Positions 12,001 through 64,000 are shown, counted from the stretch's first letter. The stretch: 64,000 bases of DNA from Candidatus Omnitrophota bacterium (GCA_041662125.1 JBAZTA010000002.1:9064-73063); one strand, 5' to 3'. Notes: a model not told the origin generated them from the sequence alone. Program-made: numbers and translations.

Positions 12001-15000
12001 GTTCCAGCAGCGCGATGATGGGTGCCCATATAGGTAAAGGCGGGGACACTCTTGCAATAGTTGCAAGAAATGATGAGCGAGGAGTGACTCCTGCTACTTT
12101 ATCTTTACAGCTTGAGGTGAAGGATTATGTAGCGGGAGATGTTTCTGTCCCGGAGAAGAATTTTAGAATGCCTCACCAGGAACTTATATTTGTGGAAAAG
12201 GGTATAGCTAAAGTAATGCTTAAGGATATCTTGCCTAAATCTAAGGCTCAGTCAACGGAATTGTTCCAAGGAGATTCTGTCCTTAGCTTAAAGGATTTTA
12301 GGCTCAGCTTTAAAGAGCCCTCCACAGTTTCTGTCGTAAGGCAAACCCTTGAATTGAATGTTCAGAGGAACTTATCTGAAGAATTACCTGTAAGAGAGTT
12401 TAATGGGATACAGTTTCCAGAATTTATCTATGATGACAAAGGTGAATTGCTAGGTCTTGTGTTAAGGAGAAATATCGAGCCGCAGATATTCAATGTAATC
12501 ACGACAGCCTCATTTCCGATAGGCGTGGGAGTAAAACTGCCTCCAGAAACTAAGTATGCGGATAAAGCAATAGTACAGTGTCCTCGTGATAGACAAAAGG
12601 CCAAGATATTATTTTCTACAAAAGGCAGCTTAAGCGTACGTGTTTTTGACCGGGATGATACGCTTTTTAGTGTAGAAACTTTATATCCAGGAGATAAGAT
12701 CATTCTGTTGAGCGGGCATAATGTTAAATTCAATGATACAGTAAATAAACTTCTTGAAGCCGTGGAAGGGCCGTTTGAAGGAAAAGAGTTTTTTATAGAC
12801 AAGGGATTGATAGCCAGCAGCCCGATTGAAGGCGTACTATTTACCAAAATATTGAAAGCAGAAGAGTTTGAGAGTTCTGAAGAACTGCCGTTAATCGTAG
12901 AGACTATTTTTCTATTAAAGAAGGAACAGCTGCCTTTGTCAGGGCGTACACAAAAAGTAGTATATGTAGAAACTGGAAGCCTTGTTGTGACTCTGAAAGA
13001 TACTAAAACAATGTGCACCGTAGATACCGCGGACATAATCACAGTTTTTGAGCCGGCTAGCTTATATGCATTGAGAGATTCATTTATTACCATAATTAGA
13101 GAAGGCAAAGCAAATTTAAAACGCGGCCCTCCGGCAGATTCAAAGATAATTCCTGATTTAACACAACGTCCTCGTCAGTCTCCTGAAGGTGTCGCCTATC
13201 CTGAGCTTATCTTGGATACTCAAGATAAGCTATCCGCAATAATTTACAGAGCTGCCAATATATATCCAGAAAAAATGTATCCGGTCAGTATTCCTTCCGG
13301 CGCGATCGGTATTGGCGTAAAAACTGTCAACGGACCGGAAAAGCTGCATATCGAGCCGGATAACTATATGGAAGTTCTGATCGTTGTCAACGGCAGATCA
13401 CAAGCTGCATTTACCGATTCAAATTGGAACAATCCAATCTCAACAATAATTAAATCCGGCGAAAAAGTGATCATTTATCCTAACACCGGGCATGGATTTA
13501 TCTATACGGGTTGCAAGATGCTCGTTGTTATGCAAGGCCCCTTTACCGGTAATCCTAAAACGTATCCTTTAGAAAAATCCAGCAGCCCGGTACTTACTTC
13601 TGATGCGATTGTTTCACAGTGGCTTAAGTTTAATCATCCTCCTCAGAGCGTTATCCTTGGTGATGCTTTGGTGAATGTTTTTGTGACCCGGCAGGGCGTG
13701 AGCGGTTGGAATAATCATATTGCCGGCGGCACCGGACTCTACGCGAAGATCATTCCTTCCTTAACGCTTGAAGATGGTCGTTCCATTATATTTGTTGTGG
13801 GAGATATATTAGCGGTCAAGGATATTAAGCTATTGTATAAGGATGCGGAATTCTCTGAAAGTGTTAATGCTTTTGAACGCAAGGCGCGCAGGCTGCAAAC
13901 TCTTGAGCAGATGCGTTGGCCTCATGAAAGGGTTCTTTTACCCATTGTCAGACTTATGGGCTTGATGGCAGAAAAGTACCGTTTGAACGGCCGTAGTGTC
14001 ACCTTCGATTACGACGATGATAATTCCATGATACAAGCTATTGCAAGGAAAACGCTCATCTCGCTTTTATGGATACTCAAAGAAAATAATGATTCTGAGT
14101 TAGCTATTTACTTAAGCCAACGGCGTATGGATTTTGAAAAGCTCATCGCGCTTCCTGAATATGAGCTGCGCAAGTTTCCCCCTCACTTGTTTTTAAGAGC
14201 TGATCATATCCGTTGGCAGCACTATTATGAAAGCCGTAAGCATGCAGCAAATGATGATTTTCGGCAGTTGGCAGCTTTGAGAATGGAAAGCTATCCGCTG
14301 ACAGTAAAACATTTTGATATTGAGATGGTGAAATGGTTTGAGGCTTATCAGAAGCTCGGCGATTATTTGGATATTGGCTTTGAATCAGTATTCTCTCCGA
14401 TGCAAGAAGAACATGTTTCTCTGAGCCTGGCCACAGCTGCTCTGCGCGCTTTCCTTACAATTCTTTTTGAACGTCAAGACATGGTATTGCTGACTTTCGA
14501 ACGGATGAAAGGAATATCCTATGAACAGCTCTTATCTTTGTCTCGTCAAGAGCTCTTGTCTTTGCGCCTTGATCAGGTATGGTTAAGGGCTGAAGAGCTG
14601 CTTTGGCAGGAATATTCCGCAGGCAGGGATACTGATCAAGAAATCTTGCAATTTTCCCGCGAGCGTGAATTTATTTTGCGCAAGAATGAAGAGATCAGGC
14701 TTATGTCTGAGATCAATGCTTTTATTTCACAAGGCATGGGAGAACGCTTGGCAAAGAATATGGATGTGGAAGTAGAGATTGTTCAGTTGACCGATGAGCA
14801 GATAGAAAGTTCTTTAGGGATAGAGAGGTTGCGATCTGATAATGGGCAGCCAATTCAATTGAACGCCTGCACTTTCCCAGGGCTTGTTGGAAGATTAGCA
14901 TTTTTGTATGGAGACGGTGGTTATGTGCAGGGTGTTTCAGAATCAGGGGCGCTCTTCCCGATAGATTCTCAGGCTGATTTTGTAGAGGCTTTGGCGCGCG

Positions 15001-18000
15001 GTTATACTTTAGAGTTTGTGCCTGGCCGTTTTGATATCAAGGCTTTTGGCACGGTCAATCCTAAACTGCATAAGTTTGTGCATGACGGTAGAGTAGTGAC
15101 CATCCGTCAGGATGGAACGCTGGAAGGGCCCACTCAGGCTCTTCAGGAACATTTCGGCGCAAATATAACCGGTAATTTCCGTTTAGTTTTGAGCCGCGGG
15201 AATCAATCAAAAGAAGTTTCTGTAACCGAGCTCCTGGAAATACCGGGCATAATGTTTGCCAGTAAATACCAGCCGTCTTTCCCATCTCCTTCAGGAACAG
15301 AGATAGTCGATTATTCCGCGGAAGGTATGCTCGCTCAGAAGCGTTTTAATGAACTGGGAGGAGAAAGCCAGTATCACACCTTTAGTAGATTTTCTTTTGG
15401 CAGCGCTCTTAACGACGGGAAAGAAGTTGCCGGAAGCCTCAGGTTTACCAGGCTTGATCGCGGACATTCGTTGCGGTTGGTAGAAGCGCTTCAGGAATAC
15501 GCGTTAGATAAAGAAAACAGCTTGATCGGTGAGTGGAAAAATAGCGGTATGATCGATACGCGGATTGAAGAATTCTTCCGCGGGCTGGGCGTAAATTATT
15601 TTGCTCTTCTGGCGACAGGTAAGCTGTTGATCATTCTGGGCTCTGGCCGTATTTTGCATATGACGCTTCCTGTCAGGATTATGCCTCTGGATGAGACCTA
15701 TAAGTTCTTCCTCTATAACGTTGATATTATCAAAGGCCGTTTAGCAGACCTGGGCGATTATCTGGATATAAAAGAAAGTACTAATGATGTTGATACCCTA
15801 AGAGATATCCGTGAATCGACCGCGATCATGCTGGCTATGGTTTCTCAGTTGATACGTGATCTAGAAACAGCCGGAATAACTCAGGCTGATGATGCCCGCA
15901 GGCAGAAGTTCCTGGGAGCTTTTGCGGAAGGCTTTGCCAATAAAATCGTGCAAAAAGAGCTTCTTCCTGCTCCTGTTATGTTGAATGATATTACCTATAT
16001 ACGTAATGAAGAGAAGGTGCTGTATCATCGTTTGCAGCGCATATCCCGCCAGAAACTTTCAGATAATTTTGAGAATTTAGTCCATCTTCTTACTGCAAGT
16101 ATTCAGCCGGTGATGGCGCAGTGGCCGGTATTAGATTTCTCAGATCCCTTAGCTTTTAACATGAATGCCAGTGTTCCTTATCGTTTCAGCCCTTACGAAG
16201 ATTACACAGACAGAACAAAATATCCCGATCTTTGGTCAGAAACCAGGTCCGCGCTTAAGCTGCTTGCTGAGAGCCAAAGGCCTCAAGGCTACCCGGCTTA
16301 TTTCTGGAAGATCCGGGGAGAAGAGCTTGCTGAAAGAAAAGATCTTTTGGGTAATGGAGGGCGTTTGGCAAAATTGACGGGCGCTCTTCATGAAGCGTTT
16401 AGCGCGCAGAAGAATACGGTTTACGTCGATGAGCAGAAAGTATCTTTATTTGAGGCTTTAGATGAGCTTAATGTTTTGATCAAAGAGTCCAAGAAGGCTT
16501 ATCAGTCTTCCTCGAGTGCGATAGAGGCAGAAAAGGATCAGGGCTGGAACAGTGAAGGTATCTGTATCGCGGCGCAGACGTTATACCGAAACACGCAGTA
16601 CGGATGGGCGCGGCGGTTTGTTGAGGACATATATCGGGCGAACGCGGGGAGCGAGTTATTTGTGGCAGCGGCAGAGCGAGCGTTAGGGCGGTTAATGTTT
16701 GTGAAGCATTACCGAGCAGGGGTGGGATATATCACGCATCAGGTAGGGTTATTGGAAAGTGTGCCGATCGAGAAGTGGGATGAAGACAGGTCGGTGATGA
16801 AGGTATTGAAATGGTATGGGAATGGAGAGGCAGTGAGGAACGCAGAAGCGATAGAATTTATCGTATCATTTTACGGGATACTGAAGTATTGTCAAGAAGG
16901 GCAGAATCAGAGGAAATGGTTTGTAGGTGAGATATTGAGCATGTTGGCGTGCGAGGAAACAGAAAGCGTGGCGTACCACCGAGCGTTAGGGGTGTGGGAA
17001 TTGATCAAAGGGAGGGTGAGCGAAGAGCATAAGGTATGGTGGAATAAAGTAGCAGGAGAAGCTCGGTTAGATCAGGCGGTGATGAACCGGTTGAGGATAT
17101 TGCTTGGGCAGAAAGAACCGCGGGGTAAGATCAACAGAAGATCGGAATATGAGTTAGATGGTGCGCGATCGTTTAGAGAGCGGTTAGGGATATTAAAGGA
17201 AGCGATCGTGGTGGAAGGCGTTGAAGGAGTGGTATTGCAGAAGGCAAGCGGAGATTACCAGGTGACGATAGGAGCGGACCTGTTGACGCATTCAGATTGG
17301 GAGTTAGACGCGAGAGTTCGGTGGCGAAGGAAAGGCCAGCAGCAGTGGCAGAGGACAAAGATGTATAGTATTGGCGCATACCGATGGCAGGGGGTATGCG
17401 AGATAGGAAAAGATGATCCTGAGGATTACGAGTATACGTTGACGGCCTGGGTGAATGTGGGGGAGACCTGGAGACAGAATATCCGTGAGCGATGTGTGCT
17501 TGCGCCTGAAGAGATCAATGATATCAAGAGCGATGTGCTGCTGGGGATAGAGTTATTAAAGCAGATGATCACGGAATACGGGTTAGAGGGCGAAGAGGCG
17601 GGGAAGGTGAATAAGCATATTGCGTCATTAGAGATGGAAGCGCAGTACGCGGGAGATATCTGTGTGATCTCAGAGCGGGACGAGTTGAAGGAATTGATGG
17701 TGAAGTATCCGTTACGAGACCATTTGATCAGGTATGAAACATACGGGCCGCAGCTGAAGGTGGTAGGGGATAAGGTGGTCAAGAACGATAAATTGGTATG
17801 GTTATGGAATGAAAAGCCGATGGTAGATGACGGAGAGTATTCGGCAAAGAGGATTGTAGGAGAAGTAATAGAGGTAGAGATAGATACGATCATTATAGAT
17901 ACGAAACGGGTAATGTTAAAGTACCGCAGGAAGTGGCAGGCAGAGCCGTGGCAGCAGACAGTGATGGAATGTGTGAGTAGGGATGGGGTATACCGGTGGA

Positions 18001-21000
18001 AAGGTAAATTTAAGGCAGAAGAAGTTGGTCGGTATGAGGTAAGTTTTGAGATAGAAGATGGCTCAGGGTTAGTGTACCGGTATGAAGATGAGATCACGGC
18101 GCTCGAAGTGATGGTGAGCCCGGAAGTGGCGCGGTTCGGGACGTGGTATGCATCGTTCCCGAGATCGTTTGGCGGGTTTCGTGGGTTGATCAAAGATATT
18201 GAGCGGGTAGCAGGAATGGGATTTGATGTTTGGTATTTACCTCCGATCTATCCGATCGGGATAACCAATAGGAAAGGGCGTAACAACAGTTTAGTAGCAG
18301 GAGCGAATGATCCAGGGTCACCGTGGGCGATCGGGAACATTTATGAAGAAGTAGAAGGAGACCGCGGCCATAAATCAGTGCATCCCGGATTAGGGACAAT
18401 AGAAGATTTCAGGAATTTCAGGGAAGCGGCAGAGTCAAAGGGGATGAATGTCGCGTTAGATCTGGCGTTCCAGTGTTCACCGGAGCATCCATATGTAAGG
18501 GATCATCCGGAATGGTTTTATTTGCGTCCGGATAAGAGCATCAAATACGCGGAGAACCCGCCGAAGAAGTACCAGGATGTATACCCGCTTAATTTTTATC
18601 CTGAAAATAACGGGGATATGGAAGCGTTATGGAATGAGTTGAAGAGCGTGGTAGAGTTCTGGGTCGTGCAGGGGGTGAAGATATTCCGGGTGAACAGTCC
18701 GTATAAGAACCCGTTTCGGTTCTGGCAATGGCTGATCGATGAGATCCATAAGGTGAATCCAGAGGTAGTGTTTTTATCAGCGGCATTGACGAATCCTAAG
18801 GCGCAGCGGTTATTAGCGAAAGCAGGGTTCCAGTTGTCGTATACGGATTATCCGGCGCGCAACGACCGTGCGCAGTTAGAGGAACTTATCAGCGATGCGC
18901 AAACAGGGATAGCGACGTGTCAGACAAAGGAATACTTAAGAGGGTTATTGCCGGCCAATACGCCTGACATATTATCGAATTGGTTGAGCCGTGTGCCCAA
19001 GACAAAGGTAGAATTAGAACGGGCGTTTAAGATAAAGTATTTGTTGATGTTTTTGTCTCCGAGCGTGATGATCTATGGGCCGGCGTATGAATTGTGCTGG
19101 AACCAGCAGGTAGAACAGGGCGGGGTGCGGGAGTACGAGGATTCAGAGAAGTACCGGATCTACAACTGGCCAGAGATCATAAAAGAGGCACAAGAGAATA
19201 ACCAAGCGGATATCAGCGGGTTTATCGCGATGGTGAACCGGATCAGGAGAGAACATCCGGCGTTACAGTCTGATGAGGTACGATTCATAAAAATAGAGGG
19301 ACAGGAGCACCGGCCGGAAGACCAGCATCATATGGTGGTGTTCATGAAACGCTCGGAGGATAAGACTGAGACGATGATCGTGGCGGTGAACATCGATGTG
19401 TCGGGCGCGATGCGCTGGGTGAACGCGACGATACCGGTACAGGAGATGGGGATCGGCTGGGGCCAGACGTATGTGTTGGAAGATGTATTGAACCAGGGGG
19501 AATCCTACACCAAGAACAGCGCGGTCGTTGGTATTGGCCGTGGCGGAGAAAAAGATATCGCCCATATCTTTATCGTGAAAAAATCCTCTTCGGCAATTTC
19601 TGGTTTTGATGCTGAAAAACTCTGTCTTACCGCGCAGTTGTGGTATGCCAAAGACCGTTTTACCTGGGCTGAGAGATTCAGCCAATACTATTGGGAGAAT
19701 GCGCAGTCGGAATTCTTCGTGCCTGCGGCGGAAATTGCCCTCGCAAGGTTGCTTTTTGATAAGAACTTCTACGAAGGGGTAGCGTATGTCTTGCACAGGG
19801 TTAACTTATTGGATCCTGCTCCTATATCTGCGTGGGGGGATGATAAGTCAGTCGTTAATGTCCTGAAATTGTATGGGAATGGTTCAGAGGGAAGAAGTAA
19901 TACCGAGATAGAAAGATTAAGTAATGAAATAGTTGATTTTATGGTTTCTTTTTACGGATTACTTGCGCACCGTAAAGAGGGACAGCGGCAGAGAAAGTGG
20001 TTTATAGGGCAGGTTTTGAGCATACTGGCCAATGAAGAGCCGCAGAGCGTTGCCTATGAACGGGCATTGTCCGTATGGCTGGGAATAAAAACTAAGGTTA
20101 ATGATGAACATATAACATTCTGGAATGAGATAGTAAGCGGGATCCCGCTTGAAGAAAATATCAATAACCGCATAAAAATATTCCTGGGTAAGAGAGATGT
20201 TCGGTCAAGAATCATCCGCAGGGCAGATTATGATGAAGCAAGCGTTAAACCCTTCAGGCAACGGTTAGGTATTTTAAAGGAAGCTATCGTTTTTGATAAT
20301 ATGGAAGGCGGGGTTGAGCAGTTGGGTGATGGCCGGTATAACGTTATTATCGATGTGGATATGCTGGTCCATGAAAGCTGGGAATTAGGAGCCAAGATAA
20401 AGTGGAGTTTAAAAGGGCAGGACCAGTGGCAAGAAGCCTCTATGTTTGGCATCGGAGCCTATCGCTGGAAAGGGATCTGTTATATCGATCAAGAAGCTCC
20501 CCAGGATTATGAGTATTCGATAGAAGCCTGGGTAAATGTCGGTGAGACCTGGAGGCAGGAAATTATCAAGCGCTGCCTGGCTGCTCCTCAAGAGACCGTT
20601 GATATTAAGAGCGATGTGTTGCAGGGTATTAAGTTGTTAAAGCAATTGAGCAGTGATCGTTGTTTTGAAGCAGGTCAACTTCCGCGGATCGATAATCTTA
20701 TCAGGCAGTTCGAGGATAAAAATGCTTCTTTACCGCAAGGTGAGCTCAGTTTTGAGGTAAGGCAGGATTACTCCAAGAGCGTTTGTCAGCTTGCGGATAG
20801 TGACGATATCAAAGGATTGATGTTTGAGTATCCGTTGCGCCAGCATCTGATCCGGTATGACGTGTACGGCCCGCAGATAAAGGTAACGGGAAATAAAGTC
20901 GTCAAAAATGATCAATTGACTTGGATATGGAATGAAACTCCGGTTGTCAATGGCGGAGAATATCCTGTTAAGCGGATCGTAGGAGAGCCGATAACTGCTA

Positions 21001-24000
21001 CGATGGAGACGATCATTATCGATTCTCAATCGGTATTGTTAAAGTATCGCCAAAAGTGGGGAGAAACTCTCTGGCATACGGTTGAAATGGAATGTATTAA
21101 TAAAGACAGGGCGTACCGGTGGCGGGGTGAGTTTATTCCTTTAGAAGTGGGGCGCTATGAGATCAGCTTTGAAATCCGAGATATCGCCGGGCAGGTATAC
21201 AAATATGAAGAAGAGATAACGCCGTTAGAAGTAATGGTAAGTCCTGTGGCAGCGCGCTTCGGGACCTGGTATGAATCGTTCCCGCGGTCGTTTGGCGGGT
21301 TTAAAGGGATGATAAATGATGTAGATCGTGTCGCAGGGATGGGATTTGATATATGGTATTTGCCTCCGATACATCCGATCGGAGAGACTAAGCGTAAAGG
21401 AAAGAATGGCAGCCTTACCCCCGAGCCTGGTGCTCCGGGTTCCCCATGGGCAATAGGTAATATTTCTGTAGCAGTTGAAGGGGACCGGGGACATAAGTCA
21501 GTACATCCTGATTTAGGGACAATGGATGATTTTAGAGATTTTGTCGCTGCGGCGCAAGCAGTCGGAATTAAAGTTTCCCTGGATTTCGCGTGTAATTATT
21601 CCCCGGACCATCCGTATGTGCATGATCACCCTGAATGGTTCAACCGTAGGCCTGACGGCAGTATTAAATACGCGGAGAACCCTCCGAAAAAATATGAAGA
21701 TATTTATCCTTTGAATTTTTATCCCGAAAAAGACGAGGATATGGAAGCGCTGTGGTTTGCTATTAAGGACGCGTTTGAATTCTGGATCGAGCAGGGCGTT
21801 ACCGTTTTCAGGGTCGATAACCCTCATAAAAAACCATACGGCTTCTGGCGCTGGCTCATCGATGAGATACATAAAAGACATCCGGAGACGATCTTCCTGG
21901 CTGAGGCTTTTACCAACGCCAAGATCATGAGGCTTTTAGCCAAATCGGGATTCCAATTATCGTATACCTATTATCCGTGGAAGAATAGCAAGCCTCAATT
22001 GGAAGAATTTATTTTAAATCCGGAAATAGGGATCATGACCTGCCGGACAAAAGAATATTTCAGAGGGCTTTTGTCGGCGAATACTCCGGATATACTCCCT
22101 GAGTGGCTCAGCCGTATTCCCAGAAATAAGGAAGAACTCGAGCGGGCGTTCATGATCCGCTATATCCTCATGCTTATGTCGCCGAGCGTGATGATCTACG
22201 GGCCGGCGTATGAATTATGCTGGAATATGCAAGAAAAAGAAGGCGGTTCTACGGAATACCGCGATTCCGAGAAATTTGAAGTAAAACGCTGTAAAGAATT
22301 TTTGCAAGCCGCAAAAGAAGATGCCTTGAAGTCTCCCGAGGAAAGATCTATCCCCGACATCAGCGGCTTTATTACCGCGGTCAACCGGGTGAGAAAAGAG
22401 CATCCCGCGTTACAATCAGACGATATCCGTTTCATCAGAATAGAAGAACAGAAGCGCCGTCCTGAGGACCAGCATTATATGGTCGGTTTTATAAAGAAGT
22501 CGGTTGATAAGAATGAAGTTGTCCTGGTCATCGTAAATATTGATCCTTCAGGTACCGAACGCTGGGTGAATGCGACAATACCGATTGAAGAGTTAGGCAT
22601 CGACTGGGGAGAGTCATATGAATTAGTTGATGTGTTGAATCCCGGAGAGAAGTATACCAGAGACAGCGCGGTCATTGAGCTCATCCGCGGCGGTAAGAAT
22701 AGGCCCCTTGCTCATATCTTCGTGCTTAAGAAATTGCAAGATAAGGCATCTTCAGCAATTGTAGCCGCCTCCAGTGCAATAGGGGCAGAAGAAGATTCCT
22801 GGAGCAGCGAGGGGATCTGTATCGCGGCGCAGACGTTGTACCGAAGTGCGCAGTACGGATGGGCATTGCGGTTTGTGGAAGACATTTACCGGCCGAACGC
22901 GGGGAGCGAGGGATTTGTGATGGCGGCGGAGCGCGCGTTAGGGCGGTTGTTGTTTGTGCGGCATTACCGCGCGGGAGTGGGGTATATCACGCATCAGGCG
23001 GGGTTATTGGAAAGTGTGCCGATCGAGAAGTGGGATGAAGACAAGTCGGTGATGAAGGTATTGAAATGGTATGGTAACGGTGAGGCGGGCAGGAACGCGG
23101 AAGCGGTGGATTTCATCGTATCATTTTACGGGATCCTGAAGCATTGTAAAGAAGGGCAGAATCAGCGGAAATGGTTTGTGGGGCAGATTTTGAGTTTACT
23201 GGCGTGCGAGGAGAGCGATAGCGTGGCGTACCACCGAGCGCTGGGGGTATGGGATCTGATCAAAGGGCGGGTGAGCGAAGAGCAAAAGGTGTGGTGGAAC
23301 AAGGTGATCGGGGAGGCGCGGTTAGACCAGGCGATATTGAACCGGATGAGGATCCTTCTTGGGCAGAAAGAACCCCGGGGGAAGATCCTGAGACGGGCAG
23401 AGTATAAAGAGGAAGCAGGGAAATCGTTCAGGGATAGGTTAGGGATATTAAAGGAAGCGATCGTGGTAGAAGGAGTGGATGGAGTGGTATCGCAGAAGTC
23501 AAGCGGGGATTACCAGGTAGTGATCGGGGCGGACCTGTTGACGCATTCAGACTGGGAGTTAGACGCGAGAGTGCGGTGGCGCAGGCGAGGGCAGCAGCAG
23601 TGGCAGGGTGCGAAGATGTATAGTATCGGAGCGTACCGGTGGCAGGGGGTTTGCGATATCGGGAAAGACGATCCTGAGGATTACGAATATACGCTATCGG
23701 CATGGGTGAATGTGGGAGAGACCTGGAGGCAGAGTATCCATGAACGCTGTGTGCTGGCGCCGGAAGAGATCGCTGATATCAAGAGCGATGTATTGCTGGG
23801 GATCGAGTTATTAAAGCAGATGATCACGGAATACGGGTTAGGGGGCGCAGAGGCGCTGAAGGTGAATAAGCATATTGCGTCATTAGAGATGGAAGCGCAA
23901 TACGCGGGAGATATCTGTATGATCACCGACCGTGAGGAGTTGAAGGAATTGATGGTGAAGTACCCGTTACGAGACCACCTGATCAGGTATGAAAATTACG

Positions 24001-27000
24001 GCCCGCAGTTGAAGGTGGTGGGCGAGAAAGTGGTGAAGAACGATAAATTGGTATGGTTATGGAATGAAAAGCCGATGGTCAATGACGGGGAGTACGCGGT
24101 CAAGCGGATCGTGGGAGAGACAGTCGAGATAGAGATAGATACGATCATCATAGACGCGAAGAGGGTCATGTTAAAGTACCGCAGGAAGTGGCAGGGCGAG
24201 GATTGGCAGCGCACGGTGATGGAATGTGTAAGCAAGGATGGGGTGTACCGGTGGAAAGGGGCATTTAAGGCAGAAGAAGTTGGGCGGTATGAGGTAAGTT
24301 TCGAGGTAGAAGACAGTGCGGGGTTAGTGTACCGGTATGAAGATGAGATCACGGCGCTGGAAGTGATGGTGAGTGCGGAAGTGGCGCGTTTCGGGACGTG
24401 GTACGCGTCGTTCCCGAGATCGTTCGGCGGGTTTAAGGGGATGATCAAGGATGTTGAGCGTGTCGCGGGTATGGGATTTGATGTATGGTATTTGCCTCCG
24501 ATCTATCCGATCGGGATAAGCAATAGGAAAGGGCGTAATAATAGTTTGGTAGCAGGGGAGAATGATCCCGGTTCACCATGGGCGATCGGGAACATCTATG
24601 AAGATGTGGAAGGAGACCGCGGTCATAAATCAGTGCATCCGGGTTTAGGGACAATCGAAGATTTCAGGATGTTCAGGGAAGCGGCAGAGTCAAAAGGAGT
24701 GAATGTGGCGCTGGATTTGGCGTTCCAGTGTTCGCCGGAGCATCCGTATGTAAGGGACCATCCGGAATGGTTTTACCTGCGGCCGGACAAGAGCATCAAA
24801 TACGCGGAGAACCCGCCGAAGAAGTACCAGGATGTGTACCCGCTTAACTTTTATCCTGAGAATAACGGGGACATGGAATCGTTATGGAAGGAATTGAGGA
24901 GCGTGGTGGAGTTCTGGGTCGCTCAGGGGGTGAAGATATTCAGGGTGAACAGCCCGTATAAGAACCCGTTCCGGTTCTGGCAGTGGCTGATCGATGAGAT
25001 CCATAAGAATAATCCTGAGGTGGTGTTTTTATCTGCGGCGTTGACGAACGCGAAGGCGCAGCGGATGCTGGCGAAGGCAGGGTTCCAGTTATCGTATACG
25101 AATTATCCTGCCCGGAACGACCGCGCGCAGTTAGAGGAGCTGATCAGCGACGCGCAGACAGGGATAGCGACGTGCCAGACAAAGGAATATTTAAGAGGGT
25201 TATTGCCGGCCAATACGCCTGACATATTATCGAATTGGTTGAGCCGGGTGCCGAAGACGAAGGTAGAGTTGGAACGGGCGTTCAAGATAAAGTATTTGTT
25301 GATGTTATTGTCGCCGAGCGTGATGATCTACGGGCCGGTATATGAGTTATGCTGGAACAACCAGGTAGAACAGGGCGGGGTGCGGGAATATGTCGATTCG
25401 GAGAAGTACCGGGTCTACGACTGGCCGGAGGTTATAAGGCAAGCGCACGAGAATGATGATGCGGACATCAGCGGGTTTATCGCGAAAGTCAACCGGATCA
25501 GGAAAGAACATCCGGCGTTACAGTCTGACGATGTGCGGTTCATCAAACTGGAGGGCCAGGCGCACCGTCCGGAAGACCAGCATTATATGGTGGTGTTCAT
25601 GAAACGGTCAATGGATAAGTCTGAGGCGATGATCGTGGCGGTGAACATCGATGTATCCGGGGCGATGCGCTGGGTGAACGTGACGGTGCCGGTGCAGGAG
25701 CTGGGGATCGGCTGGGGCGAGACGTATGTGTTGGAAGATGTATTGAACCAGGGTGAATCCTACACCAAGAACAGCGCGGTGGTGGGTATCGGCCGTGGCG
25801 GAGAAAAAGATATTGCCCATATCTTAATCGTGAAAAAATCCTCTTCGGCAATTGTGGTTGAAGATGCTCTGCGTGCCCGGATAAGCGAACTTGGGATAGA
25901 AAGAGATGGAATTGGAAAAATTTTAACAGTTCGAATCAAAGAATGGGAAAACATTCAGGCAGTAATCGTTTCTTTAAAGTCTGAACATAGAACAAAATCC
26001 GGCGAAGCTGACAGGATCTGGGCAAAGACGGCAGATGTAAGAGCAAAAATACGGCTTTATTCTGAAGGGCTTGTTTTTTGGAAAAAGTTTTTGCGTTTTT
26101 TCTGGCCGTCTTCAGAACAAAGAGAAGTAAGGATAAAGGAACGTCTTTGGAAGAATTTGGTAAAGCAACGCGATGCCTTAATGAAGGATATTCGGAAAGC
26201 GCAGGCGGAAGAAAAAACTTTTGCAGGTGGGGTTAAACAGTTACAAGGCAACGTCTTTGTTATTAATGGTGAAATAGAAAAGCTTCAGAGGCAGCTTGAT
26301 GCCTTTAATAGTCCTATCCCACAGAAAATATTGGCTCCTGCAGTGGCTGATGTTTTGTCTGAAGCTGCTGCTGGTGTTTGCGTTGCTCAAAAGACGAGAG
26401 TTCCTGTGTGCCAGGAAGCTTCAAGAGCAGCCGCGCAGGGAAAACCCGTTATTCGCGTTTCGGCGAAACAGGCAAAAGCTTTGGTAGAGAATTTGACAGA
26501 ACATATCACCTTGTCCTATATCAAGGCGAATCAAGAAAACATGGTTGAACTTCTTGCGGCAGTTTGCGGAGAGTTGCCTTTAGAGCGCCTGGCAAAGCTT
26601 TTGGCTCAATACATGTGGCTTGACCCTTCTCAAAAACATATTATAGATGCGATCATGGACCGATTCACCAGCTTTGATCTTGGTATCTTTCAAGGTGTCT
26701 TTCAGGCGTGGGATACGCTTGAGAATATCGCTTTCGCCGAAAATACTTTCCAGGTTTATCTCCTCAAGAGGAATAGTGGAAATAATAGCCAATGGAAACA
26801 AGAACAACTGTTAAATGATTTAGCCGAGCAGCTTAAAAAGCAGCCGGGAACCAAAAGGTCAAAGAGTTCTTTAAAGATCGATAATAGTCATTTTGGACTG
26901 TATCATGCCCGCATCGATTCTAATAATTGGCGTATATTCTTCCGGATCAATTGTGATGAGAAAATAATCATTATTGTGGATATAGTTACGAGAGCGGAGT

Positions 27001-30000
27001 TAGATAAAACAGGGGCATATGATGAAAAAATAATCGTATTATTGGCAGGTAAATCAGCAGTGGTTTTGTTGCAGGAATATGATGTTATTCCTTACGGCAA
27101 TCTCGTTATTCCTGAACAGGCATTAATCAGGAAAGTCCAGCAAACAAGGGTTTCTGCTTCGCCTATTTCGAAAAATTTTTACGCTGAAAAGAAAACGTTT
27201 ACAAATTTAGTTGGGTTGCGGAGGTATGTTTTGGGCTTACCTCTTCCGTGGCTGGTGGGGGGCCTTTACTCCGCAGCCCATACTAATAATCAAGGAGGTT
27301 TCGGATGCTTAGTCAATATCAATTCAGTCAGTTACAGGTCTTACAGCTCAGGGTTTTATCTTCCCGCGATGTGGTTGTCTATACATGTGTTCCTGATTGC
27401 CAAACAGTATTTGAGTTTATCCTCTCGCCTTTGGGGTACGCGTGGGGAAAATCACCGGGCGGCTGGCTTGAGCTTACCTATGAATGCGCCGAGCAGATCA
27501 GGGAATTACTCCACGGACAAATTAAAGAAATCCCTATATATTTTGAAGGGCAGTCCTTGGGCAGCGCGTAATCGGGCTTATGCTGTTTTTGCCAGCAGCG
27601 CGCTTGAACATAATAGTTCAGCAGCACCTTATTCTTTAATTACTTCAGGCAAGCTTAAGCAATATGCTCGTTTCTGGTCGTTTTTGAGCCTTGGTTTGGG
27701 TGCTTTATGTGGCTTCTATAAGTTTGATTTTGTTAATTTGCCTTTTGTTTTTGTAACGATACTTTTGCTTGCGGTAATTATATCCACACAAGCATATGTC
27801 GTGCGCAGTTTGGAGGAGGTAATTACAGTTTATAATAAAGGAATAGAGGCTGATAACGGGAGTATTTGTTTCTTAGATGCTGCTCAAAATATTGTTGTTC
27901 ATCCGGCGATCCTTGCTGCCTCCCAGGAGAAGATACTGTCCCGTATCCTGATAACATTCTTGTCTCCCCTTTTGATCCTGCATAAAATAAACAATAAAAT
28001 TGTTTCTGCTATCTTACGCAGGGTATCTTTAACGCATCAACCTGTAAAGATGCTTTTACCCGTAGTTGATAGAACAGGAAGCTTCTTGTCATATACTTTG
28101 GGCGGCTATGTTTATGTTATGGCGCTGGAAGCGCTCACGATGATCATTACCTTACCATACGGAGTATTGCCTGCTTTCTTGTATCTTTTTGTTGTCAGTA
28201 TAGTGCCTTATTCCTTGGTGAGTGAATATCTTAATTCTCTTTGGATGAGCCGGTATTTAAGCCAGCAGTTAGGCAAAGCGTTGGTGGAAAAGGCAGAAGC
28301 GCGAGAATCGGCGATACGGGATCCTTTGACCGGCGCCTATAATCGTAGGTACCTTGATGAGGAATTGCCGAAATGGACTGCACGCGTCAGAAGAGGCAAA
28401 GATGAACTTTCGATCCTGATGCTCGATATCGATTTCTTTAAGAAAGTCAATGATACCTATGGCCATACAGCAGGAGATGTTATCTTGAAGGGAGTTTCTC
28501 GATTGATCCATGATTCGATCCGTACCAATGATTCATTATTCCGTTACGGAGGGGAAGAGTTTTGCCTTGCCTTGTCATGTAAATTAGCGGATGCCGTTGT
28601 GAAGGCGGAAAAGATACGGAGGGTGATAGAGGAATATGCGTTTAATCATCGTGGCGTTGAAATCAGTGTTACGGTCAGTATTGGGGTAAGCGAGTTTGAT
28701 AAAGAAAATATCGATGACAGCCATAAGGATGTTATTGAGCGGGCGGACAGAGCGCTTTATGAAGCTAAAGAAAGCGGCAGGAATAAAGTAGTGGCAAATA
28801 CCTTCGGCTCCAGCAGCTCTGCAATAAATAATAATCAGCTTAAAAAATATTTTATGAGTCTTTATTCGTATGCCGCAGGGCGAGCAGTTATATTGAATAC
28901 TAACGCGGCTCAGGCGCATATGGTATCATTGCCGATTGTCAGGGTTACAAACTTGCCCGAAGCACTCAAGATATTGGCAGATGAATCCTTTGGAAGATGG
29001 TTGGATATACAGGGGGCGTGGCGCGCTGAGCATACCATGGATATAGATGATTATCGGGGTTTTCTTACGGGTAAAGCAGAAGAGCCGGGGGAGTTATACC
29101 TTGTCTTTTCGTTACAGCCTTCTGTTATAGATGTTGAAGGTTTTGTGAATCTTAAGGTTTCCTTGTTGGGGCAGGATATGCGCGTTGTCCATGAATACGC
29201 GTTTCTGGAAATAGCGCCATGGAACCGGTGTCCGGTGGATCAGCGACGCTATTCAGGGCTCGGGCATGAATTGAGAATTTTTGGTATTCAGGAATTATTA
29301 TCACATGACCAAAAAATAGTACAGCAGGTTACCCGTGATAAAATCAGGGTTTTAGGCCACCGGGATGTTGCAGGGGATATTTTTGAGGATGGCATACACC
29401 GGGGGTATGTGGAGGAATATCTAACCGTTCAAGCAGAGAAAAGGCGTTTATGTATTGAAATGTTCGGCTTACAAGATGAAGCTGATATTCCGAGTTCATC
29501 TCCGATTAAAATTCCAGAAAAGGCGCAAGGAAAGGCTGAAGCTGTTTATGGTAAGAATAAAGTTTTATTCAAAAGACAACTCAAAGGTTTTGATATCGGC
29601 CTTCCTGGCGCTTTCTATAATGAAAAACATTACCATGTAATAAAAGATGGCCTGGAGAAGTTTGCTCCTCTTAGTTTGCGCGCGCCTCCTCTGTGGGCTT
29701 TGGAGATCACAACTTCTCTGTCATCCACCGGCGGAGAATATATTGCTTTAGATGCACTTTCTAGAACCGTTATTATTCATCCTGCCTATTTTGACCTTCC
29801 GCAAAAAAGCCAATTAGTGGCCCTGGCTAGTAAGCTTATTTTGATATTCTTGGGGATAGAACATAAATCATTATCAGAAACCGCGGCAGAGTCACTGGTG
29901 TCCAATAATAAGAATATGCTCCGGTTACTTTCTTCTCTTATCAACCTTCGTACTAAGCTTACCTATAGTTGCCTGTCACTCCATGATATTGAAGCAGCGC

Positions 30001-33000
30001 TGGAAGTTTATCTTTCAATCAGCGCGCCTCGGTACGCAGCAGCCTATTTTGAAATCGGATTAAGCGTATTAACACATATTCTGGACGTTTTGGAGATCTA
30101 TGTTGAATTCGTGGATCATGTGTCGTTTAATGCCCAAGCGCTTGTCGCGTTATTAATACATATTAATCCGACAAGGGAAACTAATTCCTTAAGCAGGTAT
30201 TTAAAGAAAAAATATATTAATGATAAGGCTACCAGAGACTATGTAGTATTAATGCAGCGGTTTAATTCTTTGCCTGCTTTACGGATCGTCAGAGGTGAGG
30301 ATGCTTTAGAAAAATATATCTGTATGATTTTAATGTTGTCAGGTGTTCATGGGATCATATTGGTGCTCGCCGATAAGCTTGCTTCCGGCAGGCATCTAGA
30401 GACAGTTGAGGAGAGGATCTCGTGGGCAAATGAAGTGCATTGTATTTACGCGCCTTTAGCTGAATTTTTGAAACTAGAAGGCCTTGATCGGCAATTCAGG
30501 GAAGTCGTTTTTTCTTATACGCATATCTATGAGCAAGTTGTTGCTGCGGTCCAGGAAATTATGGGAGGCAGGAATTTCCTGGAAGCACAGGATTTCCTGA
30601 AGGCAAAATCAGAAGAAATACAGCTTGGCCTGGCAGGAAAAACCATTTTTATTGAAGAGATTTTGTTCCGCGTGAAAGACGCTTATACCTGCTGGAAAAA
30701 GGCAATGACAAAGAAAGAATATGACAAAGATATCAAAAGGTTGAAAGATGTTTTTGGGGTCACGATCATCAGCAGGCAAAGGAATGATGTGTATCATATC
30801 TTGAGTTATTTATTAAGTAATTTCCCTTTGCAGGATCTTTCTGAAGAAAATCCCGAGTATAAACATCATAATAAGGAATTCGCAGGCATCCAAGCTCAAT
30901 GGAACGAGCATGTTGTTTTTATCAATATTGAAGGTGTGCCTTGCGAGGTCCAAATATTCTCCCGGGAAGATTGGAAAGCAAAGCAAATGTTTGACCGTCC
31001 GCATTGGGTATATAAATTAAGCCGTGAAAGCGCCGGCAAACATTACGCAAAGAACAATGTGGCTGATATTGAAATTGTATCCGGCCATATGAAAGGCATG
31101 AGGAGAGGTGCAGTCTTATTGCGCATGCCTCCGCAAAAATATGATTTGATTTCTTCCTGGCAAAGTATAAGCATGGAACAATACGAGGAAGTCATAGCGC
31201 TGATACGTAATAATACTTATTCAATGGTAATTCATCGGTCTCGTAAATATCCCGGGGTCCTGGAATTAACTTTCTCCGCGCTTGAAAATAAGCCGGGAAA
31301 TTTGAGAAGCCTTTTTGCTTTATTTGGCACACAGATGAAGAAAGTAGTCCCGGCGTATGGGCAGAATTTTAACTTAAGATCATCGCGGTTGTTCTTACTT
31401 CCTGTCCAAGGAAAAGTCGAAACCGGGGACATATTCTTGTCGGAAGCCGAGCATATGGTTGCCGGATCTGCGATCCATGCGCAAAGCAGCTCAAGCATTG
31501 TTAAGGAATTATTGCGGCCGTTGCGGTTCAAACGATTTGGTTTACCTTCCGTGGCTGGTGGGGGCCGGATCGCCGCAGCGGCCGTATTTATTTCGTCTTC
31601 CCCGATTTCTGCGCCGGTTGATGGGCTGATCTTTGGGTTTATCATTGCCGCAGGGTATCAAATTGGAGATGAAACTGTTTCGAGGAATTATTTTATCCCT
31701 CTCCATGTCTCTTTTGACCCGTATAAGACAATCAGCGGCAGTGAAGAAGAACGCCTTATCAATAATCTCCCTGAAATAATTATTGAGCAGGTTGAATGGT
31801 TAAGGCAGCAAAGATGGTTTATTGATAAAGGCAATAGCAAGCAGTACGCTCTGGAAATAAAAGATTTCTTTGTCTTGAGATGTAAAAACAGCATCAGCGA
31901 TAGTGATTTTATAAAGCAATTAGGCGGGATGTATGTTAATAAAATAAATGATCTCTGTCTGGTATTGGCGGAATATACGGATAGTTATTATCAGTCCTTG
32001 TTTGAGTGTATGGCCAGGGGAGCCAGTATTTTGACGCGCAATGATAATGTCGTTGAATTTAGGCATTTTAATGCCGTCTCAGGCATCGAAGAAGTTGAAA
32101 TTGAGAAAACTGATACGTTAGGACTGCCTTCTTCAAATGTGTTAATCCCGCTTCTTGGAAGGCAGGGTATCAAAGTATTATATAAGACATATAAAGTAGT
32201 TGGTATTAATCCGGAAGCAGAGCTTTTATCTGTGCTTACTGAACAGGGTTATTCTGCTATTCCGCGGTTACTTGGGACAGTTGTTTATCGTAAGGGTGGT
32301 GAGGTGGAAATGCCTTTAGGTATATGTATGCAGAGGATTGAGAATCAAGGTGATGGGGGTGGCGTTATCTGGGGTTGTTACGATCAGGTGATCGGAAATC
32401 ATGCGCCGGCGCAAAATGAAATAGTGAAGCAGTCTACAATAACACAACTGAAAAAAATGGCTCAAACTCTGGCATCATTCCATATTGCTTTGGCGCGGGT
32501 AAATGATGATAAATATATTCCCCTTGTATCGTCTCAAGAAGATAGGGGGCTCTGGGTTTCCGGAGGAAGCACGTATTTGAAACAAGCGACCCGTCTGCTC
32601 CGGGAAACAAAAGGTTCGGATACAATTGATTCGGTGAAATCACGGCTGCAGAGTTGCGAAGACAGTTTTGATGCTGCTTTAAGCGGAATAGTCGGTGCGC
32701 GAACTTTAGTCAAGGGGCGTATCCATGGTGATTTTCATTTTAGCCAGATACTCCGCAGTACCACAGGCCAGTATATCATTATAGATCTGGAAGGAGAGCC
32801 GTTGGCAAGCCCGCATCAGCGCTGGGAAAAGAAAACTCCTTTGCAGGATGTGGCAGGAGCAATAAGGTCATTTGGGTACATCAAACATCTGATCTACGCG
32901 ATCAAAGCCGGTTATATTAAAGGAGAGGAGATCGGACAGGAAATAAATGGAGAAGCAAAATATAAAGCGTCAATTGACTTCTTGGAAAAGAAGAATGATC

Positions 33001-36000
33001 CATTAGTTCAGGAAGTTAATACCTTAACGCAGCAATTAGTGAGCGCTTGGGTCGATGCTTATTTAGATACGATAGAAAAAGAAGAAATGACCGGGATTCT
33101 ATTCTCTGCCCAGTATTCGCGTGCCGAGGCTAAAAAGGTTATTTATGGGTTTGTGTTAACCAAGGCCGCTTATGAATTTAAGTATGAAATGGACGTGCGG
33201 CCGGGTATAGGGATGGAGTTGATCCCGGTTGAAGGGATCATAGATGCTTTACAACAGTATTATTCTTCTGAAAGTGGCAGCAGCCCCATAAGAACAAGGG
33301 GCAGTGAAAGTGATTTATATCAAATCGATACGGCTTCCCGTCCTTTCCTGGGTATTCGCTCTTTAGGTGTTTTTGCCCCGCTTGCTTATTGGAGAAGTGA
33401 ACATGATTGGGGTACGGGAGATATTGATGTCCTGTTAAAAGTCGTTGATTTCTCAAAAGGCATGAATTTATCTCCGCTGCAGCTGCTTCCTTTGAATTAT
33501 CCTCTCGGTGATAACTGTCCGTACCATATTGCCAGCACGTATTATTTGGACCCGGTATATATCGGTATCAATACTATGCTGGACTATTTGAATATTCCTC
33601 ACCAGGAAAGGACAGTGATGCTTGAGGGGTTAAGCGCGGACATAAAATCTTTACGAAAGCAGGCGTTTGAAAAATCAAAAAATGATGAAACGAGGGCGTT
33701 AAAGTACCCTGTATTTAAATTAGCCTACGAATACTTTAAAAACCGCTATCGAGAAGGATATTGTGACGCGATCTTCTCTTCTTTCACGCAGTACCTCTCT
33801 GATAACCATTTTTGGCTCAGCGACCATATTTTGTATTTTATTTTATCGAAACAATTCGGGAGTTATGATTTCCGGGAATGGGATAATAAAAATATTGTAT
33901 TACGGGATCGGGAGATGATCGAGTATTATAAAATGCTGCATAAGGAAGAAATAGAGTTTGAAGCGTTTTTGCAGTGGATATTGACCGGACAATTATTTCT
34001 CGTCAATAGACATGCTTATGAGGGGGATACTAAGGTTGATATTATGCTTGACCAGCCTTTCGCGTTTGGATACGCGGATGTCTGGTGTAACCCCGCGGCA
34101 TTTGTTATGGACCCTGATACCTACCAGCGGTATTTTACCCAGGGCGCTCCGCCTCACCGGCTCGATATTCCCCAACACTGGCAATTCCCCTTGCTTGATT
34201 TTAATAGCCCTGCGGCAAAGGAACTTCTTTTATCAAGGCTTAATTTCTTTTTACAGTTTTCATCAATACTGCGCATCGATCATCTCTTAGGGTATTATAG
34301 GATTTATCATATGTTTGATGATCCGAAATGGGAGATGACCTTGGCTCGGATGGGGATATGGGAAGAGATCGCCAAGATATACGAAAGCCAGATGAGCATC
34401 CTCGAGAAAAGAAAGGCCATATATGCGGTAATTCTTGAAGGGTTAAAAAAGAATTTACCGTATAGCATGGCGCGGCAGTTGTTCAATAGCTCCATGGATG
34501 ATCTTCAGCATGCGCATGTCATCCTTGCGGCACGCAAAGATTTTGCTTCTCTTCCAGCTAAGCGCGAGGAAAGTGGCTGGTACGCGCAGTACTCGACTGA
34601 ACATAAACAGGAGCTTTTATGTTCCATGCTTAATCCTAGCGAATACGGCGAAATAGATTATCTGGAATTGCTTATCAAGGATCCTGAAATGTTCTTGAAG
34701 CCTGACGATAGCATCCGCTGGTGCTATTTTAAAATGGGGTTGGGCGAAGAGATCATATCTGAGTTTATGGCAGCAGCTCAGAAGCAGGGAAAAGTTCTGG
34801 TCATGGAAAATCTGGGTGTCGTCCCTCAGGAAATTGATAAGTCGCTTTTTGAACTTGGCTCTTCGGTGTTTCGGCCGCTCTATTTCGGGTATAAATATTT
34901 TATCGGAGATAATAATCCGTATTGGTTCCCTAAAATAAACGCTCATGATTACGCTTGTTTTATGATACATGATTCGGTGACGTTACGCTGCTTCTGGGAG
35001 GCAAAAGGGAAATGGGGGGCAATCAAGAATTATTTTAAAGGTGGCCATGAAAAAGAAAACGTTGTGTCTTGGTTAAAAGAAAACGGATATTTGGCGCAGA
35101 AATCACCGGTTGACCTGTCTTGTTTAAACGGACACCTTCATTTTGCTGTTCTTGCTTCAGTGGCGGATTGCAATGCGAGTATGTGTGTTTTAATGATGCC
35201 GGATATATTCGGCTCAGGAGAAGAAGGCATTATCAATATGCCGGGTAATTCAGGCTTTTGGACCGCGCGCTCCCTGGTGACAATAGAAGATTTATTGTTT
35301 GAACTACAGAATGAATCACATCTTAAGACCAACGTTCCGGCTGCGCAGGCTGTGTCGATGCTTAAAGAATTAGCATATTATAGACAGCGGGATAGTTTCA
35401 TAAAGCAAGTGCCCTTATTGCCGGACAATACTGCTGCGCTTATTACGACCAATCCGTTGATGGGAGACGGTTTTAAGCAAATACGTTTCCAGGGCCAGGA
35501 TTTCCTTGTTGATGTGGTAGTCTATGGCCGGGCCCAAAAAGTAAAGCTTGTGCTTGATAATAAAACAGATATTGTTATGAAGAGGCTGGAAGTAAAATAT
35601 GGCTTGCCCGCAGGATTTTCAGTATACCGGGCAAACTTTCGCATTGATGCTGCGGCTACGGCGACAGTTTCCTATCGGATCAAAATTAATGGCAATACCC
35701 ATCATCTCGCCGGGTATCTGGTTTCCATGCCGCAGGGGACGGATACTAATCCCTTATCATATGATTATGGAAAGATAAAACAAGAGTCTTCTTCTCCTCT
35801 CCAGTCTCCTGTTTTCTTAGGTGCGTTGGTTAGTATCCGCAGTTGGCAAAGACAGAGCGCGTTGTTTTCCGTGGGAAGGTTAAATAAATCAACATCCAGC
35901 CCGCTTGTGAAGGTCGAGCCGATTGCAAGGATAGAGGAAATGCTCAAAACCTTCCCCGCAGAGTGTATTGATTGGTGGAATTGGGAAGAGCGAAAGTCTG

Positions 36001-63920: not shown

Positions 63921-64000
63921 GAGAAGCGTGAAAATAGCCTTTATCGCGGCTCACACGGGTGTATCCGCGAACAGGAGGAAGATGCCTCACGGTTGTTCAA
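63738..64000 (+). other. L,D-transpeptidase (YkuD/ErfK) catalytic domain, interrupted by the frame-0 TAG at 63918. The catalytic Cys motif lies in the -1 (frame 2) reading.
   Basis: Frame 0: IGENPGNTPLGWHRITRFDRWHKSSSYKTPDGLPAPMYWGLQLDGSRIWLHQG then RLPLLF*. Frame 2 from 63899: EIAAPLLEKRENSLYRGSHGCIREQEEDASRLF (compare YGIHGT...SHGCIRMxNEDxxELF). The junction is at the GGGG run 63896-63899. Confidence 0.65.

Follow-up and report, generated by a model that had tools for sequence, protein, structure and literature searches.

The open frame and its glucan modules

A stretch of 64,000 nucleotides (nt), labelled as Candidatus Omnitrophota bacterium (GCA_041662125.1 JBAZTA010000002.1:9064-73063), was analysed over its full length and is hereafter called the window. 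It is occupied by one open reading frame (ORF) that carries, among many other enzyme modules, three units related to the maltosyltransferase GlgE, a maltokinase-like kinase and a 4-alpha-glucanotransferase of the GH77 family. The frame runs on the plus strand from nt 3 (3..63998), has 0 stops in 21,332 codons and is open at both window ends. The other five frames contain from 746 to 1,973 stops. Pfam and NCBIfam domains are found along the entire 21,332 codons, with more than 25 Pfam families tiling the frame. The encoded chain of at least 21,332 amino acids (aa) holds about 40 gene-sized modules of unrelated chemistry, of which the glucan modules are a minority. The original prediction, made from the sequence of this window, had placed the glucan modules in one ORF, which is true but understated, since the frame spans the whole window and continues beyond it.

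Its length and its tiling by many different enzyme domains place the chain among the multi-enzyme giant ORFs, which measure 10,000 aa or more. Because of the stop-free frame, the Omnitrophota labels of the closest relatives and a domain repertoire that matches the published class, the window is regarded as part of a giant multi-enzyme gene, at least 64 kilobases (kb) long and most likely from Omnitrophota. Such genes, already described in preprints, include the 'Archaeovorins' of West-Roberts et al. (2023, bioRxiv 10.1101/2023.11.21.568195) and the 'multi-enzyme metabolic cluster' class of Nielsen & Lui (2026, bioRxiv 10.64898/2026.06.07.730766). The window shares with the Omnitrophota giants an ORF far longer than 10,000 aa, many enzyme domains and hydrophobic segments, as well as glycosyltransferase (GT), methyltransferase, NUDIX, HAD, HD, ROK and radical SAM domains. 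On the other hand, GlgE, maltokinase and GH77 are without mention in the text of either giant-gene paper. According to published reports, SecA-DEAD and C39/S8 peptidase domains are common in full-length Omnitrophota giants; no SecA-DEAD, C39 or S8 domain was found in the 64-kb slice, whose ORF continues past both ends.

Between 16.5 and 35.8 kb the modules follow each other in the order predicted pseudo-GlgE, putative GlgE, predicted pseudo-GlgE, ParE-like module, membrane-anchored GGDEF cyclase, unassigned module, RelA/SpoT homologue, maltokinase-like kinase and GH77. The features on which the analysis is centred are the following:

3..63998, plus strand: slice of the giant multi-enzyme ORF (stop count; Pfam and NCBIfam domains over the full length)
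16509..16523, plus strand: junction motif SSSAI at the upstream boundary of unit 1
16512..19586 (aa 5504-6528), plus strand: unit 1, predicted pseudo-GlgE of 1,025 aa (Pfam GlgE_dom_N_S, Alpha-amylase and GLGE_C)
19587..22769 (aa 6529-7589), plus strand: unit 2, putative GlgE with an intact catalytic set (4u2y match, conserved motifs)
22770..25841 (aa 7590-8613), plus strand: unit 3, second predicted pseudo-GlgE, a near-copy of unit 1
31596..33278 (core 31,980-33,239), plus strand: maltokinase-like kinase module (TIGR02457, maltokinases of the PDB)
33279..35789, plus strand: GH77 4-alpha-glucanotransferase module (PF02446, alignment with MalQ)

The family PF11896 (GlgE_dom_N_S) is matched with an expect value (E) of 6e-76 in six stretches between 16.5 and 25.9 kb, PF00128 (Alpha-amylase, E=2e-18) in three stretches and PF21702 (GLGE_C, E=1.5e-15) by three matches in all. 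The homology to GlgE spans the N/S, catalytic and C domains, and unit 2 matches Streptomyces coelicolor GlgEI (4u2y) at E=6.5e-104. The catalytic parts lie at approximately 18.10-19.58, 21.22-22.68 and 24.35-25.84 kb, in agreement, by family and by coordinates, with the three tandem GlgE-like domains proposed earlier. Each unit is bounded exactly by SSSAI-type motifs, one at either end. It is formed by an N-terminal region of about 235 aa, a complete N+S domain, a second beta-sandwich, a GH13_3-like catalytic domain and a C domain. The N-terminal region matches no Pfam family and was modelled as all-helical, with low confidence, in the AlphaFold prediction of unit 2 (predicted local distance difference test, pLDDT, of 40-55 there). 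The mean pLDDT of that model is 59.6, so that only its secondary-structure layout is usable. In comparison with the canonical GlgE, the helical N-terminal region, the second beta-sandwich and the two additional, apparently dead copies are extra elements of the window.

The residues of the three units are given here in the numbering of S. coelicolor GlgEI, as named in PMC7805345. In that enzyme Asp394 and Glu423 are catalytic, Gln324 and Asn352 belong to the maltose-1-phosphate site, and His397, Trp448 and Arg449 belong to the acceptor site (PMC7805345). Unit 2 retains D394, E423, H397 and W448 and carries Q324N and R449K; its conserved motifs are FRVDNPH (nt 21,807), FLAEAF (nt 21,894, as FLAEAFT) and NTPDIL (nt 22,080). 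Units 1 and 3 both carry D394N, N395S, H397Y, E423A and W448A. In unit 1 the motif FRVNS (nt 18,684-18,698) contains D394N and N395S and is followed by H397Y, and FLSAAL (nt 18,771-18,788) contains E423A. Unit 2 is the sole copy of the three that keeps the catalytic Asp and Glu and is a putative active GlgE. Judged from their substitutions, units 1 and 3 are predicted to be catalytically dead pseudoenzymes and not GlgE enzymes. The three maltosyltransferases of the original prediction are consequently reduced to one: the inspection of the catalytic residues in each copy found unit 2 intact and the other two without nucleophile and acid/base (D394N/E423A).

Between units 1 and 3 the identity amounts to 88.6% in aa and 86.9% in nt, and unit 2 shares 58-59% aa identity with both. 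The comparison of units 1 and 3 gave a synonymous divergence (dS) of 0.55 and an overall ratio of nonsynonymous to synonymous divergence (dN/dS) of 0.115, with regional values of 0.13 in the N-terminal region, 0.12 in the N/S domain and 0.096 in the dead catalytic domain. The pseudo-GlgE copies are under strong purifying selection; they are selected pseudoenzymes and are not decaying. Therefore, the modules are argued to be functional proteins instead of decaying cargo.

The GC content at third codon positions (GC3) is 0.59, 0.49 and 0.68 in units 1, 2 and 3, respectively, and 0.30-0.48 in all other modules. A word-index search for homologues of the GlgE units returned standalone GlgEs alone, at 39-43% identity, and with the N-terminal 539 aa of a unit as query it returned weak N/S matches alone. 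Since the GC3 deviates and the fetched relatives of the kinase and GH77 modules lack GlgE motifs, the sequence suggests that the GlgE block is a lineage-specific and compositionally foreign addition. At 128 synonymous sites A/T of unit 1 faces G/C of unit 3, and at 42 the reverse is seen, a base bias that suggests a foreign block undergoing amelioration.

The kinase, the GH77 module and their relatives

The kinase is matched by the NCBIfam model TIGR02457 ('putative maltokinase') at E=5.6e-48 over nt 31,980-33,239 and by maltokinases of the PDB at E=5e-14 (5jy7; the alignment includes 4u94 and 4o7o). No Pfam match was obtained for this segment. The catalytic-loop motif HGD (nt 32,724) and the Mg-binding D-x-EGEP (nt 32,781) are kept, followed by PL(R/Q)DVAG..RSF. 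The peptides that had been quoted for a Mak-like kinase at 32.2-33.2 kb, RIHGDFHFSQILR, IDLEGEP and PLQDVAGAIRSFGY, are all found in the module, so that this assignment agrees with the family and structure matches.

The GH77 module is matched by PF02446 at E=7e-55 (187.1 bits, cutoff 25) over nt 33,393-35,270 and by E. coli MalQ (4s3p) at E=1e-15, which places a GH77 enzyme at the proposed 33.4-35.3 kb; the equivalog model TIGR00217 gives 118.9 bits against a cutoff of 205.65. The motifs LRIDH (nt 34,269), ENLG (nt 34,800) and HD (nt 34,962) align with LRIDH, GEDLG and THD of MalQ. These positions are the catalytic Asp/Glu/Asp motifs of GH77. The module also contains an inserted segment of some 150 aa, and its C-terminal region, conserved and beta-rich, ends in ...NPLSYDYG. 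The searches with hidden Markov models therefore assign GlgE, GH77 and maltokinase-type families to the positions claimed for them within the single frame. Judged by the conserved motifs, the catalytic residues appear intact in unit 2, in the kinase and in GH77.

The kinase plus GH77 segment was used as the query of an exhaustive search, and the proteins found are referred to by P-numbers. Relatives of the GH77 module show 39-53% identity across the whole module, many of them in proteins of 1.4-7.2 thousand aa. The closest GH77 cluster (P0016, 53% identity) includes P0163 (MFA5337784.1, 'partial, Candidatus Omnitrophota bacterium'), the 1,932 aa of which fill a 5.8-kb contig; P0017 and P0046 are likewise Omnitrophota fragments. 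P0163 is collinear with the kinase and GH77 modules of the window (aa 10,647-11,638), with 36.8% identity over 1,099 aa, and has an SSP motif at its kinase/GH77 junction, in the same position as in the window. The kinase precedes GH77 in P0021, P0022, P0025, P0027, P0034 and P0163, and follows it in P0008-P0011 and P0015. In P0008-P0011 the kinase and GH77 are fused without the junction motif. The kinase and GH77 thus form a conserved and recurrent pair that is linked in both orders. Standalone homologues of single modules also exist (P0012 and P0013, 51% identity; P0161). The gene neighbourhoods of P0008, P0010 and P0015 contain no GlgE, TreS or GlgB. Scans for orthologues in genome and metagenome contig collections, by protein pattern and by exact 42-mer, and in a viral contig collection gave no match.

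A set of long GH77-bearing proteins from Elusimicrobiota, Verrucomicrobiae and others (P0014, P0015, P0018, P0025, P0027, P0029-P0031, P0037, P0040-P0042 and P0047) shares an N-terminal signal-like segment, followed by a conserved ...H[IV]QD[VA]H.N.EAQ…LEGA.G... pattern. Many proteins of this set end in …SA, …QA or …QAA.

Junction motif, glucan route and alternatives

The modules of the frame are bordered by a short peptide motif. The pattern SS[AP][IL] occurs 31 times, against 1.66 expected and a maximum of 7 in 2,000 shuffles (about 19-fold), and the longer SSS[AP][IL] occurs 16 times against 0.12 expected (about 135-fold). The four most over-represented 4-mers of the ORF are SSSP, SSPI, SSAI and SSSA. 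When V or M is also allowed in the last position, the motif S-S-S-[A/P]-[I/L/V/M] has about 40 sites throughout the ORF, at the module edges. Between 16.5 and 35.8 kb there are 10 junction sites in all: besides the SSSAI upstream of unit 1, they are found at nt 19,584; 22,749; 22,770; 25,839; 28,812; 29,493; 31,593; 33,279 and 35,787. Examples elsewhere in the frame are nt 3960, 8121, 10992, 42696, 49062, 51417 and 56637. The motif stands just before canonical N-termini, as in the epimerase (SSSA-ITITGHTGDIG), the HAD module (SSPL-TIKLILLDMDG) and the GT4 module (SSAI-KVVHVS), and at other sites immediately behind the end of DHQS_C, SPASM, GGDEF, the kinase or the GH77 module.

Since the junctions use different synonymous codons from site to site, it is the peptide that is constrained. 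A DNA element was considered for the junctions and ruled out, since the codons differ freely among the sites, as were internal translation starts, since no methionine follows the motifs. The most economical reading, drawn from the sequence, is that S-S-S-[A/P]-hydrophobic is a candidate processing site. The cleavage points of giant proteins are described as unknown by West-Roberts et al. (bioRxiv 10.1101/2023.11.21.568195), a gap that blocked their analysis, and junction or cleavage motifs have no mention in West-Roberts et al. 2023 or in Nielsen & Lui 2026. The same motif is found 15 times in the Omnitrophota protein P0017, against 1.3 expected. In other long GH77-bearing proteins (P0025, P0030, P0040 and P0042) two different motifs are counted, RSE[LV]R (6 and 13 occurrences against 0.03-0.04 expected) and GAR[LM]A, also written in the wider form [GA]AR[LM]A (12-13 against 0.4-0.8 expected). 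The junction motifs appear to be lineage-specific.

The canonical GlgE pathway of mycobacteria, Streptomyces, Pseudomonas and some Chlamydiae is formed by TreS, Pep2, GlgE and GlgB. The window resembles it in having a GlgE with the equivalents of D394 and E423 and a Mak/Pep2-like kinase with HGD and D-x-EGEP. It differs in that neither TreS nor GlgB was found, the kinase lacks a TreS fusion partner and everything stands in one ORF. The canonical pathway is incomplete in the window because TreS and GlgB were not found there, contrary to the complete GlgE pathway that had been announced. The claim of a dedicated fused mega-enzyme was likewise overstated, as the glucan modules are few among about 40 and signalling modules are interposed. 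Nevertheless, a route from maltodextrin or maltose through maltose-1-phosphate to alpha-1,4-glucan is biochemically coherent and is supported, by analogy, by a known system. In Pseudomonas aeruginosa, MalQ together with TreS/Pep2 converts maltohexaose and adenosine triphosphate (ATP) into maltose-1-phosphate in vitro, bypassing trehalose (Woodcock et al. 2021, PMC8084333). By this likeness, GH77 would supply maltose to the maltokinase, and the maltose-1-phosphate would serve GlgE without trehalose. The P. aeruginosa bypass (PMC8084333) is encoded by separate genes in two operons, whereas in the window and its relatives the kinase and GH77 are adjacent or directly fused.

We lean, with modest confidence, towards a giant Omnitrophota gene that carries a trehalose-independent GH77-maltokinase-GlgE route. 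The simplest mechanism would pass from GH77 to the kinase and then to unit 2, because the linkage of kinase and GH77 recurs and the MalQ/Pep2 bypass provides a precedent (PMC8084333). The GH77 enzyme would disproportionate maltodextrins, yielding maltose. Then, the kinase would convert maltose and ATP into maltose-1-phosphate, and GlgE unit 2 would transfer the maltosyl units to alpha-1,4-glucan. The three activities may run this route on the cytoplasmic side, a placement suggested because modules dependent on ATP, guanosine triphosphate (GTP) and S-adenosylmethionine (SAM) are found in the same chain. GlgE is a homodimer. The pseudo-GlgE copies may have a non-catalytic role, as partners that dimerise or bind glucan, and the single ORF would fix the co-expression of all modules.

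Several observations weigh against this route. The kinase scores 163.9 bits with TIGR02457, below the curated cutoff of 375, which makes it a clear relative and not a certified equivalog, and it also matches a glucosamine kinase model with 59 bits, which bears on its substrate. The combination of GlgE with kinase and GH77 has no counterpart among the fetched relatives, none of which has GlgE motifs, and in the window four unrelated modules, about 6 kb in all, intervene between the GlgE block and the kinase. No TreS or GlgB domain is present in the window, where only short sub-threshold matches inside the GlgE units were obtained. Some multi-enzyme giants were placed outside the membrane by Nielsen & Lui (bioRxiv 10.64898/2026.06.07.730766). 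The two scores of the kinase and the absence of GlgE motifs from the fetched relatives speak for an alternative in which the kinase is not a maltokinase but, for example, an amino-sugar kinase; GlgE would then have another supply, and the apparent pathway would be a chance product of a domain collage. This is unlikely, as the best family and PDB matches of the kinase are maltokinases and its repeated fusion with GH77 points to maltose or maltodextrin as substrate. The placement outside the membrane leads to a role at the cell surface, where the glucan modules would degrade or remodel alpha-glucans of a host. West-Roberts et al. tie giant proteins to the degradation of prey cell walls, and the same ORF contains a YkuD domain, a weak NAGPA match and hydrophobic segments. 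An extracellular, prey-directed function is nonetheless very improbable, given that the kinase requires ATP, GGDEF and RelA/SpoT require GTP or ATP, and radical SAM enzymes require SAM and a reductant, none of which is available outside the cell.

The form in which the modules act is a separate matter. The chain may be a polyprotein that is cut at S-S-S-[A/P]-[I/L/V/M], whose modules would then act individually as proteins of normal size, leaving no mega-enzyme that channels. The motif is strongly enriched and held at the peptide level with varied codons, stands exactly where standalone enzymes would start and directly after domain ends, and delimits the GlgE duplication unit on both sides. 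It is also kept at the kinase/GH77 junction of P0163 at 37% identity. Moreover, the other long GH77-bearing proteins have motifs of their own (RSE[LV]R and GAR[LM]A), and single modules have standalone homologues (P0012, P0013 and P0161). No protease domain was found in the 64-kb window by domain scans, however, the motif could be a linker or a modification site instead, and certain neighbouring enzymes, for example the epimerase, ROK and DHQS modules, adjoin without a motif. On balance, cleavage is a real possibility that we hold with less than even confidence. The window would share with viral and eukaryotic polyproteins the gene-sized units in one frame, split by a short, conserved and lineage-specific peptide motif, and differ from them in being bacterial, in a chain that is an order of magnitude longer and in a candidate cleavage site that has no protease in the window. 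An extension of the polyprotein reading to the giant Omnitrophota genes in general, as bacterial polyproteins cut at a lineage-specific site, with RSE[LV]R and GAR[LM]A in other lineages, is more tentative and somewhat doubtful. The idea first proposed, an uncut mega-enzyme whose covalently linked active sites hand intermediates on to one another, is distinctly unlikely. All activities do share one frame, and the kinase-GH77 fusions of P0008-P0011 indicate that direct fusion of the pair is tolerated without the junction motif. On the other hand, GlgE is separated from the kinase by unrelated modules and a putative membrane-spanning segment, the junction motif points to units that can be separated, and the structural model is of low confidence (mean pLDDT 59.6). 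Given the conserved junction motif, the release of separate proteins is at least as likely as channelling. Finally, an operon of separate genes that was joined through assembly or sequencing error is hardly credible: errors would add stops or frameshifts and not delete them from 21,332 codons, the junctions bear a conserved peptide motif and not stop/start signals, and similar giant ORFs have been assembled independently many times.

Giant Omnitrophota genes are already known as a class; new here are the GlgE/maltokinase/GH77 module set with two selected copies of putative pseudo-GlgE and the junction motif. The module set, from GH77 to maltokinase and to GlgE, is readable as a pathway with a direct biochemical precedent. 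With regard to the role of the giant genes, as one chain or as a cut one, the motif splits the chain into units of gene size and offers a way to test for processing, in proteomic data that already exist and in the thousands of catalogued giant proteins. If the polyprotein reading were true, cleavage of the gene's product would yield about 40 enzymes, among them one GlgE, two pseudo-GlgE partners, a maltokinase and GH77.

Other modules of the frame

The modules between the GlgE block and the kinase, and the one that directly follows GH77, are the following:

25842..27593, plus strand: module with a weak match to a ParE/RelE-like toxin fold near 26,799-26,999 (PF05016, E=1.6e-4, 22.6 bits, cutoff 23)
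27594..28814, plus strand: putative membrane-anchored diguanylate cyclase module (hydrophobic segments followed by GGDEF, nt 28,311-28,787)
28815..29495, plus strand: motif-delimited module of 227 aa (junction motifs at aa 9604 and aa 9831)
29496..31595, plus strand: RelA/SpoT-homologue module with a weak HD domain and a synthetase domain
35790..39275, plus strand: module of 1,162 aa with GH13-style motifs, directly after GH77 (motif level only)

The GGDEF domain (PF00990, E=1e-40; TIGR00254, E=3e-50) has the motif GGEEF at nt 28,548 and an RxxD I-site at nt 28,521, and hydrophobic peaks precede it at aa 9243-9406. The module of 227 aa matches no Pfam family up to E=1. The RelA/SpoT module is matched by PF04607 (E=2e-8), PF13328 (E=8e-3) and TIGR00691 (E=6e-14).

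A GH13-like domain had been expected downstream of GH77. The module at 35790..39275 does contain GH13-style motifs, DGFRVDLA at nt 37,191 followed by YFVLEVY and LSNYDE, but Pfam, a PDB sequence search and hhalign (probability 0.3%) gave no support for GH13. Its AlphaFold model has a pLDDT of 40.9, and Foldseek found no match at E<=0.001, only generic TIM barrels. A standalone homologue of 1,085 aa (P0161) shares 31% identity with it.

An Rfam scan of the window returned no RNA family. Six minus-strand ORFs of 150-259 aa (9287-10066, 12428-13108, 17426-18193, 19263-19796, 23996-24448 and 42815-43327) show no sign of being genes and are probably shadow ORFs of the purine-rich coding strand (GC skew 0.1-0.38).

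Elsewhere the ORF includes TPR repeats, three radical SAM domains, one of them with SPASM, and methyltransferase, HD, HAD, NUDIX, GFO/IDH/MocA and GT4 domains. The GT4 and PPDK_N domains, which had also been proposed further along the frame, were both found. At 3963-7190, an NAD-dependent epimerase, a ROK kinase and a 3-dehydroquinate-synthase-like (DHQS-like) enzyme form a junction-free block of 1,076 aa. The best matches of the DHQS-like domain are true AroB models, below their cutoffs. An acarbose-like cyclitol pathway (epimerase, ROK, DHQS-like enzyme, HAD, NUDIX and GH77) was considered and rejected, as this domain matches AroB and not the sugar-phosphate cyclase model.

Nucleotides 59970-61442 encode a dikinase that resembles phosphoenolpyruvate (PEP) synthase, with ATP-grasp and mobile phosphohistidine domains (model positions 4-454 of 798) and no recognisable C-terminal PEP/pyruvate domain. 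Such a layout is also found in phosphotransferases that act on other substrates. The window ends within a YkuD L,D-transpeptidase domain (63699-63998), a cell-wall enzyme in one ORF with enzymes of cytoplasmic type.

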